Assembly (NCBI GenBank): GCA_031431215.1
Contig: JANPCZ010000037.1
Span: 6,355 to 70,354, forward strand
Direction of reading: 5' to 3'
DNA: 64,000 nt
DNA from: Myxococcales bacterium
GTDB lineage: Bacteria > Myxococcota_A > Polyangia > Fen-1088
Shown here piece by piece: positions 3,957 to 40,412 of this stretch (its first letter is position 1; every line of letters starts with the position of its first letter). The notes beneath the pieces are model-generated. The model was not told the origin of the DNA, ran no database searches, and saw only the letters and a list, made by a program, of their open reading frames with translations. Both the position numbers and the translations under genes were made by a program.

Positions 3957-4703
3957 TCAGGGCAGCTTCGCGCGCGTCGCCGCCCAGCTCGGCTGCGGCT
4001 CGGGCTTGACGCTCCAGATGGTCAGGTCGTCGAGTTGAATCGCGCCCTGCATGGGACCAATGAAGCGGATCTCGCCCTTGGGCGCTGCTAGCGGCGCGGA
4101 CTGGGCAACCAGGGTGGGGCCACGCTCGAACTGGACGACAAGCGTGTCGCCCTTGACCTCGGCGAGCACGTGATACCACTGACCCGTCTTGACCTCGAAA
4201 CCGGTGCTCTTGCTGACGGGTTCCTTGCCGCTGTGCTCGTAGATGCCCACGGTGTGTTCGGTGAAGCGCACCGCGAGAATGTGGTGATCGAAGTCGATGG
4301 CGCTGCGGCCCAGCGCCTTGCCCTCGAACTTGATCTTGACGTCGATCGCGAAGTCGCCGAGGCCCTTGATGTCCATGACCGGCTTGGGACCGTTGTGGTC
4401 CTGCCGCGAGGCCTGAAATTCGGGCGTCGCGGGGATGCCCTTGAGCACGCCCTCCTCGATCGCCCATCGCGTGCTCTGAATCGGTTTCCAGATCTTGGTA
4501 TCGAGCGGCTTGGGTTTGTCGAAGTCGTCGCGAAGCTTGATCCTATCGACCTGAACGAGCAGAGGTTTGAGGGGACCGGCCTTCACCTGCGGGCCTGAGG
4601 CGCCCGCGGCCGCGTTCACGGGCCCGACGCTCGCGACGCCCCCGAGCACCAGCAGCGCCAAAGACCCTCGCCTCAAAGCTGACTCGACCCGTGCGCGTTT
4701 CAT
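3957..4703 (-). CDS. Secreted hypothetical protein, possibly a DUF1080 / 3-keto-disaccharide hydrolase-like jelly-roll
   Basis: Start taken at MKRARVESALRRGSLALLVLGGVASVG (signal peptide) rather than the upstream ORF-track start. Residues resemble DUF1080 (GDFAIDVKIKFEG...). Weak assignment. Confidence 0.45.
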   Translation of the reverse strand: MKRARVESALRRGSLALLVLGGVASVGPVNAAAGASGPQVKAGPLKPLLVQVDRIKLRDDFDKPKPLDTKIWKPIQSTRWAIEEGVLKGIPATPEFQASRQDHNGPKPVMDIKGLGDFAIDVKIKFEGKALGRSAIDFDHHILAVRFTEHTVGIYEHSGKEPVSKSTGFEVKTGQWYHVLAEVKGDTLVVQFERGPTLVAQSAPLAAPKGEIRFIGPMQGAIQLDDLTIWSVKPEPQPSWAATRAKLP

Positions 4704-5731: not shown

Positions 5732-6044
5732 AAACCTGCTTCGTGCCAACGTGGGGCTGGAAGCCAGAAGTCGCCAGCGCTGGGCCGATGTTCCGGTCGC
5801 TCAGCCGCGTCGCCACGCTGCGACCCATCGTTGCGACGAAGCTCTGTCCGAAAGGGCCCATGAAGGAGGGCTCGACCGGGCCCATGGACGTCAGTCGCAG
5901 TCGAGCGGCTGCCGGACCTTCTCGCTTGATTCCTGAACGGCCAGCTCATATTAAGTGTTGGGCGGCGACAACGACGGCGCCATGTCCGGCGGCCTGCAGA
6001 TTGCGGTTAGCCGCGCCACATTCCTGAACGAACAAGGTGAAAAG

Positions 6045-8300
6045 ATGGACGGACTTTCCGGCAGAGACAACAGGAATCCGCTTCCGGACCAGGCGCCTGC
6101 CACCTCTTGGAGAGGTCCCTACCTGCTAGCCAGAAGGGTGGTCCCGCTTTGTGCATTGGTAGCGGTTTTTATTGCCGCACCGGCAGTCGTTCTTGCCGAA
6201 ACGATAGGCGTATTTTTTGACCCGAATGTGGAGCAAATCAAGTTCGCGGCCGGCGACGTCAAGGCAGCCCTCGAGAAACACAAATTCACGGTCAGGATGC
6301 TTCCAGTTAACTCTTTGAAAGCGTCGTATGCCGACAAAAAGATTGTCATTGCCCTTGCGTCGAATGCCGCAGCCACGGCTGTGCTCGCGCTTCAGGGCGG
6401 AGGCAAGGCGGCGAAGCCGGGCGAACAGGCGTTTGCCCTTCGCACCACGGAAACGCCACAGAAATCCTACTGGGCCCTTGGCGGCGACGCGAACGGCGCA
6501 ATGTATGGCGGATTGCAGCTCGCCGAAAACATAGCATTCAACAAGTTCACCGACACATATGACACCGACGAGTCTCCGGCCATTTTGAAACGTGGAATCA
6601 AGTTGAACCTGCCGCTTGACAAAGAAAGCAGGACATACGGGAGGTCAAAGGTATCTGGAGCCAATAACGCTATTCACAACGCGTGGGACATGTCCTTCTG
6701 GAAAACCTGGTTCGATGAAATGGCGCGCAATCGATACAACGTGCTCTCAATTTGGAGCAACCATCCATTCACGTCGATGATCAAGATGCCTGAGTATCCC
6801 GACGTGGCGATACGTGACGTAACCGATTTCGATGGCAAGAAGAGAGCCATGTCGATCGACGCGAAGATTGAGTTCTGGAGGAAGGTGATGGCCTATGCGA
6901 AGTCGCGAGCCTTTGATTTCTATCTCGTCAACTGGAACATATGGACTGACGGCGCCTCGGGAAAACACGGGATCACCGACGACAAAAAGGAAGCGGCAAC
7001 CAGCAAGGCAACCATTGCGTACATGCGCAAGTGCATGACAAGACTTCTCGAGACCTATCCTGACCTCGATGGGTTTGGTGTTACTCAGGGCGAGCACATG
7101 TCGGAAAACGACAAGGACAACTCGGGATTCTTGGCAAACACGTTTGGACTAGGAATGGCCGACTATGCCAGGCGCAACCCGAAGAGGAAACTGGTCTTCA
7201 TTCATCGCTGGCACATGGCCGACTTCACCGAGATCAAGGAAAACTTTTCTGAACTCATGAAGCTTTCCAATGTGAGGTTCGAGCTGTCGTTCAAATACAG
7301 CCTGGCCCACATGTACTCGGCGGCCTTGCCGCAAAGAATGCGAGATACACACGTCGAGGCGCTTCGCGATAACAAGCTGAGATCGTGGCTCACGGTTCGT
7401 AACGATGACTTCTACTACCACAACTGGGGGGACCCAGGGTTTGCGCGCTCTTATGTTAACGGCATGATAGACAAGGGGGATTGGTTTATTGGGTATTACA
7501 TGGGATCGGATGGCTACTCCCCCACGCGGACATTTTTCAGCAAGGATAGCGTGACGCAGGGGCTCCTGGAGGTCCAGCGGCAGTGGTATATGTTCATGTT
7601 GTGGGGACGTATCTCCTATAACCCGATGATTGCCGACGCCGTATTCAGGAACCACATGGCGCTCAGGTATCCGCAAGTTGCAGCCGACCAGTTGTTCACG
7701 GCATGGAGTAAGTCTTCGAGGGGTTTGCCAAAAGTGGGCGACATGATTACGGGCACCCTGGGACGTGATGATCAATGGTGGCCCGAGGCATGCCAATCAG
7801 ACGATGGTTTCTTGACGGTCGCGGATTTTGGAAACGCAAAGGCGAACAAGGGTTCCGCCCTGAGCAGCATCGATGAGTCCGCATCCGGCCGTTTCGGTGA
7901 CAAGAAGAGCACCTACGCGGTGGCCGATGAGATCGAGACAGACGCCGTTTCGGCGCTTTCCATTGTGAACACCATGAGCGCCGGGCCAAATGCCGAGCTC
8001 GGCGTCACGCTCGGCAATATCAAGGCAATGTCCTACCTGACGGTCTATTATGCCTACAAGATCCGCGGGGCGACCCGCCTGAAGGCCAATGACAAGGAAA
8101 AGGCCAAAAATGCTGTGGGAACTGCGTACTGTTGGTGGATGAAGTACTCGAACCTGATGGATTCGATGTATCACGGCATGACGATGGCGCGCACTGCGAA
8201 TCTCGCCGACTGGCATGCACACGACAAGTCGGTTCTGAAGGAATTTGCCGATCTGGGCGGCGCCGGGACTCCTTCCTGCGAAAAGATTGCTACACAGTGA
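6045..8300 (+). CDS. Large secreted protein, possible glycoside-hydrolase-like enzyme of unknown family
   Basis: ATG 6045 preceded by AGGTGA. Long n-region then h-region VVPLCALVAVFIAAPAVVLA. ~750 aa with no recognisable catalytic motif. Lower GC than the flanks. The ORF-track start 5955 (GTG) includes an in-frame remnant similar to an internal segment. Confidence 0.5.
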   Translation: MDGLSGRDNRNPLPDQAPATSWRGPYLLARRVVPLCALVAVFIAAPAVVLAETIGVFFDPNVEQIKFAAGDVKAALEKHKFTVRMLPVNSLKASYADKKIVIALASNAAATAVLALQGGGKAAKPGEQAFALRTTETPQKSYWALGGDANGAMYGGLQLAENIAFNKFTDTYDTDESPAILKRGIKLNLPLDKESRTYGRSKVSGANNAIHNAWDMSFWKTWFDEMARNRYNVLSIWSNHPFTSMIKMPEYPDVAIRDVTDFDGKKRAMSIDAKIEFWRKVMAYAKSRAFDFYLVNWNIWTDGASGKHGITDDKKEAATSKATIAYMRKCMTRLLETYPDLDGFGVTQGEHMSENDKDNSGFLANTFGLGMADYARRNPKRKLVFIHRWHMADFTEIKENFSELMKLSNVRFELSFKYSLAHMYSAALPQRMRDTHVEALRDNKLRSWLTVRNDDFYYHNWGDPGFARSYVNGMIDKGDWFIGYYMGSDGYSPTRTFFSKDSVTQGLLEVQRQWYMFMLWGRISYNPMIADAVFRNHMALRYPQVAADQLFTAWSKSSRGLPKVGDMITGTLGRDDQWWPEACQSDDGFLTVADFGNAKANKGSALSSIDESASGRFGDKKSTYAVADEIETDAVSALSIVNTMSAGPNAELGVTLGNIKAMSYLTVYYAYKIRGATRLKANDKEKAKNAVGTAYCWWMKYSNLMDSMYHGMTMARTANLADWHAHDKSVLKEFADLGGAGTPSCEKIATQ

Positions 8301-26571: not shown

Positions 26572-27534
26572 TCAGTTGCACACGGTGCGACAGCGGGCGC
26601 TGTTGCAGTCGAGGAAGCTGTTGAGCGGCGCCACGCCGGTCGGAAACCGGTTGGTGCAGGCGACGCTGCACGCGCTGTCGGTGGCCGGGCACTTGGCCAG
26701 GCAGTCGAGCAGCGCCGGGCACGTCGTCGAACCGGTGCAGGCGCTGAACTGCGCGCAGCAATTCTGATCCAAGCAGGCGCGGCACGGGGAAGCGTTGGCC
26801 GGGCTGACACAGCTCATCGGGGCGGGCCCGGCGTCCACGACGGGCGCGCCACCGGCGCCGCCGGCGCCTGAACTGGAGCAGGCCGCTCGGCATGACGTGC
26901 TGGAACAGTCCAGGAAGTTATTGAGCGGCGTGACGCCGGCGGGAAGGCGGCCGGCGCAGGCGTTGGCGCAGGCATTGTCGTTGCTAGCGCACTTCGAAAC
27001 GCAATCGAGCAACGCCGGGCACGCAGGGGTGTTGTTGCACGTTGTGAATTGGGCACAGCAGTTCTGATTAAAGCAGCTGGTGCAGGTCGATGCGTTGGGC
27101 GCACTCACGCACATGGCTGGTGGGCCCGAACCGCCAACGCCGCCCGTGGCGGTGGCGCCGCCCGCGCCGCCGCTGCCGGGACTGCCAGCGCCGCCGGCCG
27201 CACTGCCGCCGCTGCCGGGACTGCCGCCGCCGCCCGTGCTACCGGCGCCGCCCGGCAGCACGCCCGATCCGATGGCGGGTAGGCTACCGCGGAGGAGTCC
27301 GCCACCGATGCTGCCACCACCGGCGGCTCCGCCCATCATCTGCGCCATGCCGGCGGCCACGCGCACGCACTTGCCAGCCATGCACAGGAGGCCGGTGTCG
27401 CAGCTGCCGCCGCCGGTGCACGAGCAGCTCTCGCCACCGACCGCGCACGGCGAGGCACCGCCCGAGTCACAGCTGGCGAGGCCAGCAAAACCAGCGCCGA
27501 GTAGCACCACGATCACGAATGCTTGCTTCAACAT
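26572..27534 (-). CDS. Cys-rich tandem-repeat lipoprotein (myxobacterial type) with a Gly-rich linker
   Basis: Lipobox GLASC. Two ~80-aa repeats with the conserved pattern C..P.NAS.C..C..QNCCAQF..C....CPALLDC..KC...D.AC..AC..R.P.GV.PLN.FLDC.S..C. The mirrored + strand ORFs 26576..26767 and 26795..27067 show the DNA-level repeat. Confidence 0.55.
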   Translation of the reverse strand: MLKQAFVIVVLLGAGFAGLASCDSGGASPCAVGGESCSCTGGGSCDTGLLCMAGKCVRVAAGMAQMMGGAAGGGSIGGGLLRGSLPAIGSGVLPGGAGSTGGGGSPGSGGSAAGGAGSPGSGGAGGATATGGVGGSGPPAMCVSAPNASTCTSCFNQNCCAQFTTCNNTPACPALLDCVSKCASNDNACANACAGRLPAGVTPLNNFLDCSSTSCRAACSSSGAGGAGGAPVVDAGPAPMSCVSPANASPCRACLDQNCCAQFSACTGSTTCPALLDCLAKCPATDSACSVACTNRFPTGVAPLNSFLDCNSARCRTVCN

Positions 27535-27547
27535 GGTCGGACCTCCT

Positions 27548-28810
27548 CTAGGCTTTGCGGACGCGGTACAGATACTCGCCGGCCCTGGGCACGCACAAGA
27601 TACCCTCGCTCTCGCGGTTAGCGAAGGCGGCCGGATCGATGGACGCGGGATCGCGGTAGTTCAGGTTCACGGCGCGCACCTCGGCCTCGGGCAGGCCGGT
27701 CGCCAACGTCACCTCGATGCGTGGCCGCTCGACGCCGCCGACGAAGCTGCCCGAGCCCTTGAGGTGCGTCGAGTGCGCGAGGATGCCGCCCGGCACGTGC
27801 TTGAACTTGTCCCACTGCGCGAGGAAGTAATCGCGCACGTGGTAGCCGATTTCCTTGATCAGCTTGCCGTGGGTGACCGAGATCTCCTTGATGTGAGGGG
27901 CGTAGATGATGACCTCGCCGCCATCGGCGATTGCGGGCTCGGTCTTGTACATACCCTTCGAGCCGACCCAGATCTCGTCGTACATCGCGGGCATCACCGC
28001 CAGCACCTGATGGTACGGGCGGTCCTTCCAGATGATGTGTCGCTGCGACGACAGATCGGCGGCGGCGGCCCACGCGTCCTCGGGCCTGCCGACGAACAAG
28101 CCTGCGACGCCTTCGTGTGTGACGACGGATGCCAGCTTCCAGCGCGGGCGCGGGATCATGCTGGCCGCGCGATCGATGCAGCGCCTGACAGGAGTGTCCT
28201 TGGTGCCGATGACGTCGTAGGACGTGATCAGCGCCGACAGCCAGTGGGTGAAGTTGATGATGTCGGGCCCGGCGATGCCGGGGAAGAAGTACTTGTTGCC
28301 GCCCGAGAAGCCCACCACCTCGTGCGGAAACACCGGCCCGCACACCACGAGGTGGTCGTACTCGAGCACCAGGCGGTTCAGGCGTACCGGCACTTCTTGC
28401 CTGAGGCGGCCGCCCGACAGCATCGCGATCTCGTCGGCAGGGATGGTGCCCAGCAGGGTCAGCGCCGCCGGGTTGTCCCACGCGTGGTTGAGCAGGCGCA
28501 CGCGGGCGTAGGTCGTGTCTTTCTCGGCGCGGGTGATGCCGACGTGGGCCAGCATTGCTTCGTCGGACAAAGGCTGGTGGGTGCCCAGCGCGACCAGGAA
28601 ATCGACGGCGGCGACGCGCGGCCCGAGGTGTTTGGTGATGAGGCGAAAAAAAAGCGGCGTCGGGAAAGTGCGCGTGCCGTCGGGGATGAGAATGAGGACG
28701 CGCTGCTTGTCGAGCGGCAGGGCGGCGAGGCCCTGCGAGAGGATGTCTTCAATGTCGGCCTCGCCAAGAGCGCCGGCCGCGACGCCACGACCGATCACGG
28801 TGCCTTGCAT
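27548..28810 (-). CDS. LarA-like (lactate racemase N-terminal domain, DUF2088) family protein
   Basis: LILIPDGTRTFP and VALGTHQPLSDEAM resemble the LarA N-domain and its nickel-pincer-binding region. No larB/C/E nearby. Confidence 0.45.
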   Translation of the reverse strand: MQGTVIGRGVAAGALGEADIEDILSQGLAALPLDKQRVLILIPDGTRTFPTPLFFRLITKHLGPRVAAVDFLVALGTHQPLSDEAMLAHVGITRAEKDTTYARVRLLNHAWDNPAALTLLGTIPADEIAMLSGGRLRQEVPVRLNRLVLEYDHLVVCGPVFPHEVVGFSGGNKYFFPGIAGPDIINFTHWLSALITSYDVIGTKDTPVRRCIDRAASMIPRPRWKLASVVTHEGVAGLFVGRPEDAWAAAADLSSQRHIIWKDRPYHQVLAVMPAMYDEIWVGSKGMYKTEPAIADGGEVIIYAPHIKEISVTHGKLIKEIGYHVRDYFLAQWDKFKHVPGGILAHSTHLKGSGSFVGGVERPRIEVTLATGLPEAEVRAVNLNYRDPASIDPAAFANRESEGILCVPRAGEYLYRVRKA

Positions 28811-28947
28811 GGCGGCGATTGTACAACGAGCGGCGGGGGCGCCGGGTTAGGCGCGATCCTGCTCGGTTCGTGGCGAGGGCCTGGTCGGGTGCGACTCTCT
28901 AGGGGCGGGACGACTTCGGGAACGAACCGGGCGCCGCGAACGGCCAA

Positions 28948-29775
28948 CTACCACCTCGGAAGAAACTCGCCGGAATCCAACTGACCTCGAAACGAGATGA
29001 GCCACCGTCCGCGGCTCTTCCAGACCAAATCGATCGCATCCACCGGAATGGTGAATGACATCGTGTCTCCCGACGCCCCCCTTTCAGAAACCGTGACGCT
29101 TCCACCAAGGGGATCGATGGAGTCCAGCGAGACATGTCGCGGCTTCGACATCCGAGGCTGGTCGCCGCGTCGCTCCACCAGGTCAACCTTGGACCTTTCG
29201 TCCGCCGGGATCGCATCGAGGAGGATGATCTTGCGCCTCAGGTCGGGAATCGTCAGCATTGGAATCTGCTCCGGTCGAAGCCACTTTGTCTGGGATGCGA
29301 CCCGCAGCGGAAACGAAAAAGTCGGAACACCGCCCTTGCCCCACAACACCCCAACTACGGCCCCTGGGAACGGAAGCACGTTCACGGCGACGACGCTACC
29401 CGAACCGTCCGTCAGAGGAATCGGGACGACATCGACGATCGGAACCGGGGAACAGTGATCCCGAACGGCCATCTCGTAGGTGTCCTTGATCCGCGGAACC
29501 TCTGCGCGCGGCACCGCCTTGTACAGACTGAGCGTTCCACGGACCTCACACCCACCAACAAGGATGACGCCACCGCTCGCGTTGGCGAAAGCCGCGACAT
29601 CCTTGGCCATCTCGCGAGCGTCATAGCCCCCATCCTGTGTCCGCGGAACATCAGCTTTCAGATCCATGGTCGAAAGCTCGAAGGCAGCATGCGGGCCGAT
29701 GGTCGGGGTGATGGAACCATTTGCTGAGAATCCGGCGACCTTCGTCGGTGATGGAGAACCGAAACGGCACCGCAA
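28948..29775 (-). CDS. AlbA_2 (Schlafen-like / divergent AAA) putative DNA-binding domain protein
   Basis: MAKDVAAFANASGGVILVGG matches the AlbA_2 core motif. C-terminal ~150 aa unassigned. Possible internal start at MDLKADVP (29667). Lower local GC. Confidence 0.4.
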   Translation of the reverse strand: MRCRFGSPSPTKVAGFSANGSITPTIGPHAAFELSTMDLKADVPRTQDGGYDAREMAKDVAAFANASGGVILVGGCEVRGTLSLYKAVPRAEVPRIKDTYEMAVRDHCSPVPIVDVVPIPLTDGSGSVVAVNVLPFPGAVVGVLWGKGGVPTFSFPLRVASQTKWLRPEQIPMLTIPDLRRKIILLDAIPADERSKVDLVERRGDQPRMSKPRHVSLDSIDPLGGSVTVSERGASGDTMSFTIPVDAIDLVWKSRGRWLISFRGQLDSGEFLPRW

Positions 29776-30081
29776 TCACACCCTGGCAGGTTCGGCGTGT
29801 GAGGTCATTCAAGATCCTTCCCCTTGGCCCGACCGGGACACGAGGTGCGGAGCTCCGGTCAGGCGCTCCCAGCCGCGGTACTGGTCGATGCCGGCCGATG
29901 GTGGTGCGGCCCCCGAAGGGGCTGCCCGGAGCAGCGAGATCGTCAGCGCACCAAAGACGAAGCCGACAAACAAGAAAGCAAGCGGACTCTTTCGCACGAG
30001 ACTCTCCTTCGCTCCTCTGCCGGAGATCACAAAGCAACAGGCGCCGGTCACTCTTTGAGCCTCCGGCCCGGCGCCTTGCTG

Positions 30082-30408
30082 TCACGGGGATTTCGGACGT
30101 GCTGTTCGTGCTGTTCGTGGGGCGTGGCGAAGGGCCTTCTGCTTGGGCGGCACCCGCCCAAGCACAGCGTCGTACTCAGCGTGCGAGCCAATCCAGAACC
30201 ACACCGTGTCGCCTTCGGCCTCGATCGCCAGGGCCCGGTAGTGCAGTCCCACACGCGCTGACCGGAAGGTATTGACCTTCTTGAAATGGAGGGACCGGTG
30301 CCCGGGATCCGCCTTCAGCAACGCGAAACAACGATCTGCGAGCTGGCGAACATCTTGGGGCAAGGCGCGATAGCTGCGCCAGAATCGAGCACTCGCACGG
30401 TGGGTCAC
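30082..30408 (-). CDS. Type II toxin-antitoxin system RelE/ParE-family toxin
   Basis: 108 aa. FWRSY...L..DP...SLHFKKV....ARVGLHYRALAIE.EGDTVWFWIGSHAEYD pattern typical of RelE/ParE mRNA interferases. ATGA overlap with the upstream antitoxin gene. Confidence 0.6.
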   Translation of the reverse strand: MTHRASARFWRSYRALPQDVRQLADRCFALLKADPGHRSLHFKKVNTFRSARVGLHYRALAIEAEGDTVWFWIGSHAEYDAVLGRVPPKQKALRHAPRTARTARPKSP

Positions 30409-30605
30409 AGGTTTCTTGTACGCCCGGCCCTGTGCTCGCGGAGCGCCTCGCGGGCCAGCGCATCGAGCCTGCCCGCGGCAACGTCGGCCTCAAGCTGCTT
30501 GTCCCAGTGTGCAGCGGCATACCCGACGAACCACTTCCTGAACCGCGCCAAATCCTTCTTGGGGAGGCGCTTCACGGCACCAGTTATCTCCGCGACGGTG
30601 GTCAT
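30405..30605 (-). CDS. Antitoxin / addiction-module component (cognate of the RelE/ParE-like toxin)
   Basis: 66 aa. LPKKDLARFRKWF...WDKQLEADVAAGRLDALAREAL pattern typical of small addiction-module antitoxins. 4-nt overlap with the toxin gene. Confidence 0.5.
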   Translation of the reverse strand: MTTVAEITGAVKRLPKKDLARFRKWFVGYAAAHWDKQLEADVAAGRLDALAREALREHRAGRTRNL

Positions 30606-30676
30606 ACCAACAGGTTAGTGCCCTCGCACGGCACGGGCAACGCTGGAACAGCGGGCGCCGGATTCGTCTCGCCCGC

Positions 30677-31741
30677 TCAGCGGATCAGCAGCTTGCCGCT
30701 GCGGATGCCTTCGCCAGGCTTGGGGTGATTGCGCACCGATAGCGCGCACGCCACAGTGGCCGCGATCTTCATGAAGGCGCGGCCGACCTCGGATTCGGGC
30801 GCCGACAGCACCATGGGCTTGCCGGCGTCGCCGCCGCTGCGCACCGCCGGCAACAGCGGCACTTCGCCCAGGAACGGCACGTGCTCGCGCTCGGCCAACT
30901 TGCGGCCGCCCCCGCGTGAGAAGATCTCCTCCTGATGGCCGCACTGCGGACACACGTAGTGGCTCATGTTCTCGATCACGCCCAGCAGAGGCACCTCGAC
31001 CCGCTTCCACATCGACATGGCCTTCTCCACGTCGATGATCGACACCTCCTGCGGTGTCGTCACCATGACAGCACCGGTAATCGGGACCAGCTGCGACAGC
31101 GAAAGCTGCGCGTCGCCGGTGCCGGGTGGCAGGTCCACCAGCAGGTAGTCCAGCTCGCCCCATTCCACGTCCTCGATGAACTGCTGCAACAGCTTGTGCA
31201 CCATCGGCCCACGCCAGATGACCGCACCACCGCGCTCGACGAAGAAGCCGACCGAGATGGCACGCATGCCGTGGTGGACCGCGGGCGTGATCTTGTTGCC
31301 CGCGCTGGCGCCGGCGGCCACGTCGGGATCGCCCAGCATCTGGGGGATCGACGGGCCATAGATGTCCGCGTCCATGATGCCGACCCGGGCGCCCATCAGG
31401 TGCAGCGCTGCGGCCAGGTTGGTGGTCACGGTGGACTTACCGACGCCACCCTTGCCCGCCGCGACGGCGATGATGTTCTTGATGCCGGGCAAACGTGGGT
31501 TCGACGGATCGTTGGGCCGACCCCGCACCATCGCCTCGAACGCAACCGCCACGCGCTCGATGCCGGGCAAACGCCCGACTGCGGCCACGATGCTTTGCTC
31601 GATCGCCTCGCGCGACGGGCACGCCGGCGTGGTCAGCTGGATGCCGATGTCGACCCGTGTGCCTGCGACCTTGACCTCGCTGACCATCCCGGCCGACACG
31701 AAGTCGATGCCCAGACCCGGATCCTTTACCGTGGCGAGCAC
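30677..31741 (-). CDS. apbC: Fe-S cluster carrier ATPase Mrp/ApbC (NBP35 family) with an N-terminal DUF59/MIP18 domain
   Basis: VKDPGLGIDFVSAGMV (DUF59) plus Walker A IIAVAAGKGGVGKSTVTTNLA and the CPxCG-like CPQCGH motif. Confidence 0.85.
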   Translation of the reverse strand: MLATVKDPGLGIDFVSAGMVSEVKVAGTRVDIGIQLTTPACPSREAIEQSIVAAVGRLPGIERVAVAFEAMVRGRPNDPSNPRLPGIKNIIAVAAGKGGVGKSTVTTNLAAALHLMGARVGIMDADIYGPSIPQMLGDPDVAAGASAGNKITPAVHHGMRAISVGFFVERGGAVIWRGPMVHKLLQQFIEDVEWGELDYLLVDLPPGTGDAQLSLSQLVPITGAVMVTTPQEVSIIDVEKAMSMWKRVEVPLLGVIENMSHYVCPQCGHQEEIFSRGGGRKLAEREHVPFLGEVPLLPAVRSGGDAGKPMVLSAPESEVGRAFMKIAATVACALSVRNHPKPGEGIRSGKLLIR

Positions 31742-40063: not shown

Positions 40064-40226
40064 GGCGTGCGGGGTCGAGAGAAAGAAAAGGTCCCGAACA
40101 CCCGGTCGGATGGTTACCGTTGCTCCCTTCCGGGCCTGGCGGGGTTCGCCTTCTTTCCGTCGCCCGGGACCAGCGCTACTTCTGGCACACCTGCCCCTCG
40201 AACGCCAGCGTCGGGGGAGACGATTG

Positions 40227-40311
40227 AGGAGAGAGAGGGATTCGAACCCTCGGTACCTCACGGTACACACGATTTCCAATCGTGCCCCTTCGACCACTCG
40301 GGCACCTCTCC
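40227..40311 (-). tRNA. tRNA-Ser (anticodon GGA), long variable arm
   Basis: Reverse complement ggagaggtgcccgagtggtcgaaggggcacgattGGAaatcgtg...gagggttcgaatccctctctctcct folds as a cloverleaf with a long extra arm. Ends +/-2 nt. Confidence 0.85.
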
Positions 40312-40325
40312 AGTTTCTTTTCCTG

Positions 40326-40412
40326 AGGAGAGAGTGGGAGTCGAACCCACGTCGGGCGTTAACCCGAACCTGATTTCGAATCAGGCGCCTTCGGCCACTC
40401 GGCCATCTCTCC
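40326..40412 (-). tRNA. tRNA-Ser (anticodon CGA), long variable arm
   Basis: Reverse complement ggagagatggccgagtggccgaaggcgcctgattCGAaatcagg...gtgggttcgactcccactctctcct. Ends +/-2 nt. Its 5' half is duplicated at 45428..45466. Confidence 0.85.

Follow-up and report, generated by a model that had tools for sequence, protein, structure and literature searches.

A small accessory islet in a Myxococcales genome with a predicted Schlafen ribonuclease gene and a RelE/ParE-type toxin–antitoxin cassette

In the 64,000-nucleotide stretch of Myxococcales DNA analysed here (the window; contig JANPCZ010000037.1), a block of 1,866 bp separates the Fe-S carrier gene mrp from a larA-like gene (Table 1). The block is a genuine foreign insertion, absent from the orthologous site in relatives, and we regard it with moderate confidence as a small, horizontally acquired, accessory islet that carries two independent conflict modules. 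One of these is a gene for a putative prokaryotic Schlafen (pSlfn) nuclease with a small C-terminal domain (CTD), the other a toxin–antitoxin (TA) cassette of the RelE/ParE type, with a putative small open reading frame (ORF), orf80, lying between them.

The islet and the orthologous site in relatives

Relatives were found by a scan with the LarA-like protein, one genome per species, which returned six close Myxococcales metagenome-assembled genomes (MAGs) with LarA-like orthologues that are 69-76% identical to that of the window. In four of these (L004, L006, L007 and L009) the order ribA-mrp-larA is kept with a spacing of ~0-51 nt between mrp and larA vs 1,866 nt in the window, while the remaining two of the six have unrelated genes upstream and are uninformative on insertion. 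An earlier note on this DNA, made from the window alone, had proposed a mini-islet of lower GC content between the larA-like gene and mrp, and had suggested checking whether orthologous loci lack the block. This check was positive, the block being absent in all four syntenic relatives, and the proposal of a mini-islet is borne out.

The block is read as an insertion because the site is empty in these four relatives and because GC content at third codon positions (GC3) drops in the islet genes, with values of 0.69 for the toxin, 0.70 for both the Schlafen (AlbA_2) gene and orf80, and 0.79 for the antitoxin, whereas larA, mrp and ribA lie at 0.88-0.89. GC3 is far more telling than the overall dip in GC, which is present as the note had said but only modest, the block having a GC content of 0.636 vs a window mean of 0.665, a difference of ~1 standard deviation such that 8% of stretches of equal length are as low. 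The 1-kb bin at 29001-30000 has a GC content of 0.622 and is the next lowest after two bins of 0.54 at 6001-8000. All of the islet genes and the flanking ribA, mrp and larA genes lie on the minus strand.

No integrase, tRNA gene, Rfam hit or convincing direct or inverted terminal repeat was found in or beside the block. A candidate repeat near both borders (D8; 19 nt, 79% identity) was weak and probably due to chance. The exact breakpoints could not be fixed by nucleotide alignment of the junctions to the empty sites of the relatives, because these are too diverged (70-80% amino-acid identity). Two further assemblies carry the islet, with L001, from a separate read set, 100% identical to the window over 28799-30719 and L091, from another read set, 99.7% identical over 29163-31157 and crossing the mrp junction. 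Since L001 ends ~12-43 nt from the borders, polymorphism of the islet within the population was considered, but L091 runs intact through the mrp junction and the idea was set aside.

A predicted Schlafen ribonuclease with a small beta-rich domain

The islet gene nearest to larA encodes a protein with an AlbA_2/Schlafen domain, as the earlier note had proposed, with the profile search that it recommended giving a match to PF04326 over residues 35-135 (29.2 bits vs a cutoff of 25.3) and homologues reaching 50 bits. The Schlafen core fold is present and runs to ~residue 182. Prokaryotic Schlafens are defined by the PF04326 domain together with an Ex4(E/D)xK motif, and cleavage of tRNA triggered by phage has been shown for such proteins (PMC13056530, Perez Taboada et al., Nat Microbiol 2026; PMC13462974). 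A motif that fits this pattern is read from the sequence of the islet protein (Table 1). With gaps left aside, the catalytic columns are nearly invariant among 107 family representatives, the first holding E in 84 of 86 sequences, the second an acidic residue (D or E) in 87 of 88 and the third K in 85 of 87 (~98%). A search of the PDB with the family profile matched CbCash (9ylu) over residues 15-184 (E = 4.4e-7), a CRISPR-associated Schlafen tRNase with solved structures (9ylu/9ylv/9ylx) and a proven E17/D22/K24 triad (PMC13462974), these three residues being aligned with E33, D38 and K40 of the islet protein. In RorSlfn5 the motif residues are E15/D20, the nuclease-dead mutant being E15A/D20A (PMC13056530). 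The earlier description of a DNA-binding protein holds for the presence of the AlbA_2 domain but falls short in function, as the E-x4-D-x-K triad required by the tRNA-cleaving RorSlfn5 and CbCash is kept. The protein is better read as a predicted pSlfn ribonuclease (RNase) with an intact active site, but only if translation begins at the TTG codon discussed next.

The start codon matters because the N-terminal segment contains E33 of the catalytic triad. This segment, conserved in the family as LPxVG…E….D.K, is encoded in frame upstream of ATG 29667, the publicly called start, with TTG 29775 being the sole canonical in-frame start upstream of that ATG. The frame is open for 108 nt 5′ of the ATG and encodes the near-invariant P24, G27 and E33 in the correct register, and no Shine-Dalgarno (SD) sequence precedes ATG 29667. 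As such TTG 29775 is probably the true start of the gene. The public gene model drops the first catalytic residue, and start errors of this kind would make automated surveys score such genes as inactive.

The earlier note had left a C-terminal half of ~150 aa unassigned. There is an unassigned, all-beta domain in this part of the protein, but it measures only ~90 aa, the Schlafen fold extending further than had been allowed for. The CTD has no Pfam hit and no significant PDB match by fold or by sequence, whether searched as a single sequence or as a profile. A CTD profile search of 1.84 billion cluster representatives gave 199 proteins at E ≤ 1e-3, most of which were Schlafen+CTD proteins of 250-290 aa, with PF04326 in 83 of the 107 representatives scanned. 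A search of 5.8 billion proteins by a word index gave 23 members of the Schlafen family, all of 240-290 aa, the named ones being from Polyangiaceae or Myxococcales. The CTD was also found behind a TIR_2 domain in P0284 (L181 1524-2693; E = 5e-10), behind a zinc ribbon and a cytidine deaminase domain in P0402 (E = 1.2e-4) and behind an unknown helical region in P0307, and these three proteins are candidate sister single-gene systems. Matches of the CTD profile to the giant LapA-repeat/RTX adhesins P0264 (3,719 aa) and P0265 (2,221 aa), made up of 11-22 weak repeated stretches each, were set aside as a probable artefact of summed repeats or a distant Ig-like relationship.

Judged by these sequence matches the CTD is modular, being shared with the TIR and deaminase proteins, and this suggests that it is a portable sensor or regulatory module because one small domain pairs with several effector types, as expected in single-gene defence systems. 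It is a tentative possibility that the CTD is a previously undescribed portable module for sensing or nucleic-acid recognition, joined to no fewer than three effector types and to one unknown helical domain. It would then define a new family of defence systems, each of a single gene, in which the effector can be exchanged. If this is true, the islet gene would be a Myxococcota member of that family. Because it recurs with TIR and deaminase effectors, the CTD is a tangible candidate for a sensor whose trigger can be sought.

The Schlafen protein would act as a single-gene system, in which an RNase with a Mg2+-dependent E33/D38/K40 triad is fused to the beta-rich CTD. If it works as RorSlfn5 and CbCash do, the nuclease would stay inactive until a cue, for instance a phage protein or a nucleic acid, is sensed by the CTD, and would then cut tRNAs in their loops and so halt translation in the infected cell. 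Trigger-activated tRNA cleavage is the most likely activity, judged from the motif, the fold and the architecture, with the RNase activity, its tRNA substrate, the trigger and the role in defence each being inferred.

The neighbours of the Schlafen family were examined on six named or long contigs and at 17 metagenomic loci. Among the 150 neighbouring proteins of these 23 loci no family occurs more than twice and no partner is recurrent. Individual loci hold IS66, IS110 and DDE transposases together with PemK and PIN TA pairs at L084, PIN toxins at L003 and L085, and Vsr with an MvaI/BcnI restriction endonuclease at L089. The pooled census also includes integrases, IstB, ParB_N, VapE, AIPR, AbiU (E = 6e-128), capP and PD-T4-7, with IS21 elements likewise among the neighbourhoods, while in the window the sole conflict neighbour of the Schlafen gene is the TA pair. 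A conserved small partner gene upstream of the Schlafen homologues was looked for, and the small ORFs at that position share no relationship with one another or with orf80. These neighbourhoods fit a stand-alone gene in accessory or defence-rich DNA and agree with the description of the "Cluster 4" Schlafens as proteins with C-terminal domains of unknown kind, encoded close to restriction-modification systems (PMC13462974). The defence flavour that the earlier note had given the islet is reasonable.

Two other readings of the Schlafen gene have to be weighed, one of which is that it is an N-terminally truncated, dead remnant that begins at ATG 29667 and lacks E33, in an islet that is decaying and kept by TA addiction. 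Public gene callers picked the ATG, and the protein of that model is indeed without E33, while the extension begins with a rare TTG preceded by a weak SD-like AGGG, has an atypical GC content by codon position, with a GC3 that is not clearly coding-like, and places 13 more residues than in the homologues before the conserved N-terminal segment. This is set against the open frame with its three near-invariant residues in register and the ATG without an SD sequence, and in addition the rest of the ORF is intact with all other invariant residues kept, and the Schlafen sequence is identical in the L001 and L091 assemblies, which together make a dead remnant very unlikely. We also think it unlikely, if to a lesser degree, that the protein serves in nucleic-acid binding, in regulation or in housekeeping RNA processing, and lies in accessory DNA with no part in immunity. 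Several points do weigh in that direction. AlbA_2 domains are common in predicted regulators, with HisKinase and HTH fusions dominating pSlfn architectures, and for ~30% of pSlfn genes no defence gene lies nearby (PMC13056530). Among the loci of the present family, defence neighbours are not obvious at L087 and L002, and the PADLOC models (PADLOC-DB v2.0.0, 2023) recognise none of the four islet proteins. The reading of the islet as two conflict modules also has points against it, in that the Pfam scores of the Schlafen domain and of the toxin are barely over threshold, no Schlafen relatives were found on the phage, plasmid or viral contigs searched, and the defence and mobile neighbours of the family are raw counts from single loci. 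Weak fold hints to KOW, S1 and Sm-like barrels mean that the CTD could be an RNA-binding or oligomerisation barrel instead of a trigger sensor. Against a non-immune role, the near-invariant triad points to an enzyme and not to a binder. The family is rare and scattered in its distribution, with the 23 matches among 5.8 billion proteins and with ~200 representative clusters; the gene is missing at the orthologous site with insertion sequences, TA pairs and restriction-modification genes near its relatives, and a CTD common to TIR and deaminase effectors fits conflict systems better than housekeeping.

The toxin–antitoxin cassette and its independence

The second module is a tightly overlapping antitoxin–toxin pair, in which the two genes share 4 nt (GTGA), and its assignment by the earlier note to the RelE/ParE type stands, on the overlap, the superfamily fold and a marginal Pfam match. 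That match of the toxin, to PF24732 ParE_like, scores 24.7 bits vs a cutoff of 24.4. An AF2 model of the toxin (pLDDT 74), compared with the PDB by Foldseek, matched RelE, YoeB, RelK and YafQ best (E ~2e-4, probability 1.00, target-normalised TM-score 0.6-0.74), and no PDB match by sequence was found with either the single sequence or a profile. Homologues of the toxin exceed 3,000, at 55-79% identity, with R8, F9, W10, K32, K43, R52, R58, H76, Y79 and D80 invariant in the family. The antitoxin has no Pfam, NCBIfam or PADLOC hit and no meaningful PDB match, its matches to designed armadillo-repeat proteins being summed weak repeat noise; scans of all four islet proteins against NCBIfam, PADLOC and PHROGs gave nothing useful. 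Homologues of the antitoxin number 507, and among the 120 listed nearly all are 66 aa long and 76-97% identical, such that the antitoxin is more conserved than the toxin. This is the reverse of the usual pattern, in which the toxin is the better conserved partner.

At other loci the antitoxin gene always immediately precedes a ParE_like gene, the two overlapping by 4 nt. By tblastn the two genes are adjacent in all nine loci examined for the pair (L092-L100), including Vicinamibacterales, and the 4-nt overlap was confirmed in L094, L096 and L097. The window copy has 82-83% ungapped nucleotide identity to L092-L097 over 437 nt, from the antitoxin ATG to ~codon 80 of the toxin, with the similarity stopping inside the toxin tail. 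In L092-L097 the pair has a GC content of 0.63-0.65, above the ~0.60 of the host contigs, and the flanking genes are unrelated. An element of the form TTGCCN-17-TA(A/G)(C/T)CT lies 6-8 nt before the antitoxin ATG in the window and in two other sequence types (L093-L097; L098 and L100), although it is below the threshold of a sigma-70 scan. This suggests a self-contained cassette with its own promoter-like element and a leaderless or near-leaderless transcript, in which the palindrome GTGCC..GGCAC in the spacer is a possible operator. The pair documents a very widespread, highly conserved TA cassette whose antitoxin is without a Pfam or NCBIfam model. The cassette DNA was absent from the plasmids searched, and relatives of the toxin were found on only two viral contigs.

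The L091 assembly, from a sister sample, differs from the window at six positions, all of them in the TA genes (30182-30415) with none in the remaining ~1.76 kb, the changes being R64T and N65T in the antitoxin, H76P at the invariant histidine of the toxin and three synonymous substitutions. These differences could reflect inactivation of the toxin, recombination with a second copy of the TA pair or a chimeric assembly. In L098-L100 (~4198-4311) the antitoxin is intact and the toxin ORF is broken after ~38 codons. Both H76P and the broken toxin ORFs are what one would predict if the active toxin does harm.

Several of the contigs that bear the TA pair end in or just past the toxin gene, a hint that the sequence is present in multiple copies at which assemblies break off. 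In L094 (558-2393), L095 and L097 the pair directly follows a 334-aa gene with a weak GIY-YIG match (E = 1e-3) and a 97-aa gene, with spacings or overlaps of 3-4 nt, and the four genes may form a larger operon.

Between the two modules, the small transmembrane (TM) peptide ORF pointed out by the earlier note exists as an ORF with SD-like motifs (GGAGG 8 nt before GTG 30051 and AAGGAG 6 nt before GTG 29997) and a hydrophobic stretch at residues 22-42 (Kyte-Doolittle 2.25), but it has no family hit in Pfam, NCBIfam, PADLOC or PHROGs and no homologue in ~180 fetched loci, no sensitive homology search having been made. The coding signal is weak, with GC at the first, second and third codon positions of 0.64/0.60/0.70, and the putative product bears no similarity to the TM protein encoded ahead of the nearest Schlafen homologue.

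How the toxin acts, and whether the islet works as one unit, are the questions on which other readings bear. The toxin would most likely be a RelE/YoeB/YafQ-like mRNA interferase restrained by the antitoxin, with the cassette stabilising the islet by addiction and perhaps contributing to abortive infection. That it is instead a true ParE-type gyrase poison we consider rather unlikely, while not dismissing it. Its sole Pfam match is to ParE_like, the fold is common to ParE and RelE, and ParE structures are among the Foldseek matches (6n90 at rank 19, 6x0a at rank 50). Set against this, the Pfam score is just 0.3 bits over the cutoff and the top 18 fold matches are all RelE, YoeB, YafQ or RelK ribonucleases, so that in the model the fold appears closer to the RelE/YoeB/YafQ RNases than to ParE. 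RNase active sites of RelE and YoeB use Lys, Arg, His and Tyr-type residues, which the invariant K43, R52, R58, H76 and Y79 would resemble. No PDB sequence match supports either a RelE-like or a ParE-like toxin. A further reading, put forward in the earlier note, joins the antitoxin, the toxin, the TM ORF and the AlbA_2 protein in one defence or addiction operon, for example as a TA-controlled Schlafen effector. The four ORFs lie on the same strand in a single islet, packed with gaps of 30 and 33 nt when the TTG start is used and with no predicted terminator between them, and TA systems and defence genes often cluster. Linkage of this kind is not seen in other genomes, where no toxin or antitoxin was found at the loci of Schlafen relatives (0 of 80 metagenomic and 0 of 8 other loci) and no Schlafen gene at the nine TA loci (0 of 9). 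The neighbour census likewise gave no recurrent partner for the Schlafen gene, orf80 has no homologue in the fetched loci, and the TA pair has its own conserved promoter-like element with similarity between copies ending in the toxin tail. With no co-occurrence at these loci the single-operon proposal is not supported and is highly improbable, and the islet is better read as holding two separate modules.

Elsewhere in the window, three regions stand apart from the islet. At 5955-8300 (plus strand) a 781-aa ORF without a Pfam hit occupies the stretch of lowest GC content (~0.54 vs 0.665), a departure in composition far stronger than that of the islet. At 26572-27534 (minus strand) a 320-aa, secreted-looking, Gly/Cys-rich protein holds an internal duplication of a Cys-rich unit of ~75 aa (…C.SC..QNCCAQF..C…CPALLDC..KC…). 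Two tandem tRNA-Ser genes (anticodons GGA and CGA) lie 13 nt apart at 40226-40412 (minus strand).

Table 1. Features of the islet and its borders, in positions of the window
Feature	Position	Strand	Remarks
Islet, 1,866 bp	28811..30676	.	between mrp stop codon and larA-like start codon
Prokaryotic Schlafen (pSlfn) gene, 275 aa	28948..29775	-	from TTG 29775 (probable start); public call ATG 29667, 239 aa (P0001)
Schlafen nuclease domain, residues ~30-182	29230..29688	-	
Putative catalytic motif E33-LSTM-D38-L-K40	29656..29679	-	fits Ex4(E/D)xK, read from sequence
CTD, residues ~183-275	28951..29229	-	helix 'LLDAIP', then ~8 short beta strands
orf80, putative	29809..30051	-	80 aa from GTG 30051, or 62 aa from GTG 29997; one TM-like helix
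Toxin gene, 108 aa, GTG start	30082..30408	-	RelE/ParE superfamily; basic disordered C-terminal tail
Antitoxin gene, 66 aa	30405..30605	-	no described family
Promoter-like element	30612..30640	-	TTGCCC, 17 nt with palindrome GTGCC..GGCAC, TAACCT; ends 6 nt before antitoxin ATG
mrp/apbC (ParA-type Fe-S carrier)	30677..31741	-	upstream border; PF10609 E = 5.5e-100 + FeS_assembly_P
LarA-like gene (Lar_N domain)	27548..28810	-	downstream border; PF09861 E = 2.5e-22
ribA	32435-31806	-	beyond mrp, flanking

Comparison with known systems

Both modules are of known kinds, and the findings are incremental, with no overturning of current views. The TA pair resembles the type II systems RelBE, YefM-YoeB, DinJ-YafQ and ParDE in having the antitoxin gene first, a 4-nt overlap, ~85 structured toxin residues and the RelE/ParE fold, and also in the occurrence of the cassette in many unrelated genomic contexts. 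It differs in that the toxin is without sequence similarity to the solved toxins and carries an extra Arg/Lys-rich disordered tail of ~25 aa, and in that the antitoxin falls outside the Pfam and NCBIfam antitoxin families and is the better conserved of the two proteins.

The Schlafen protein is distant from the eukaryotic Schlafen and SAMD9 tRNases (SLFN11, 12, 13 and 14; SAMD9 AlbA_2), with identities of only 11-18%, and in contrast to the two-lobed eukaryotic proteins with their large regulatory parts of the helicase or STAND type, the islet protein is a minimal, one-lobe form. CbCash is its closest solved relative by sequence, with the AKDVAA(F/I)AN..GG and C(S/N)P.P motifs aligned in addition to the triad. 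The CTD of CbCash is a Csx15 Rossmann-like cA4 sensor and the protein is encoded in type III CRISPR loci, while the islet gene has no CRISPR context and its CTD is an unrelated small beta domain.

The likeness to RorSlfn5 and the other pSlfn proteins lies in the overall plan, with a single gene, an N-terminal PF04326 nuclease, the Ex4(E/D)xK motif near the N-terminus and a non-catalytic, beta-rich CTD, and with the islet gene lying in accessory DNA beside other conflict genes. In contrast, the islet protein is small, at ~30 kDa, its CTD of ~90 aa has no counterpart in Pfam or the PDB, and its family comes from Myxococcota and soil metagenomes, the comparison group of RorSlfn5 being the Enterobacterales. 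A survey of pSlfn proteins contained 558 unannotated clusters (PMC13056530), and the islet family adds a compact Schlafen nuclease family of Myxococcota and soil bacteria to the newly recognised Schlafen defence effectors of bacteria.

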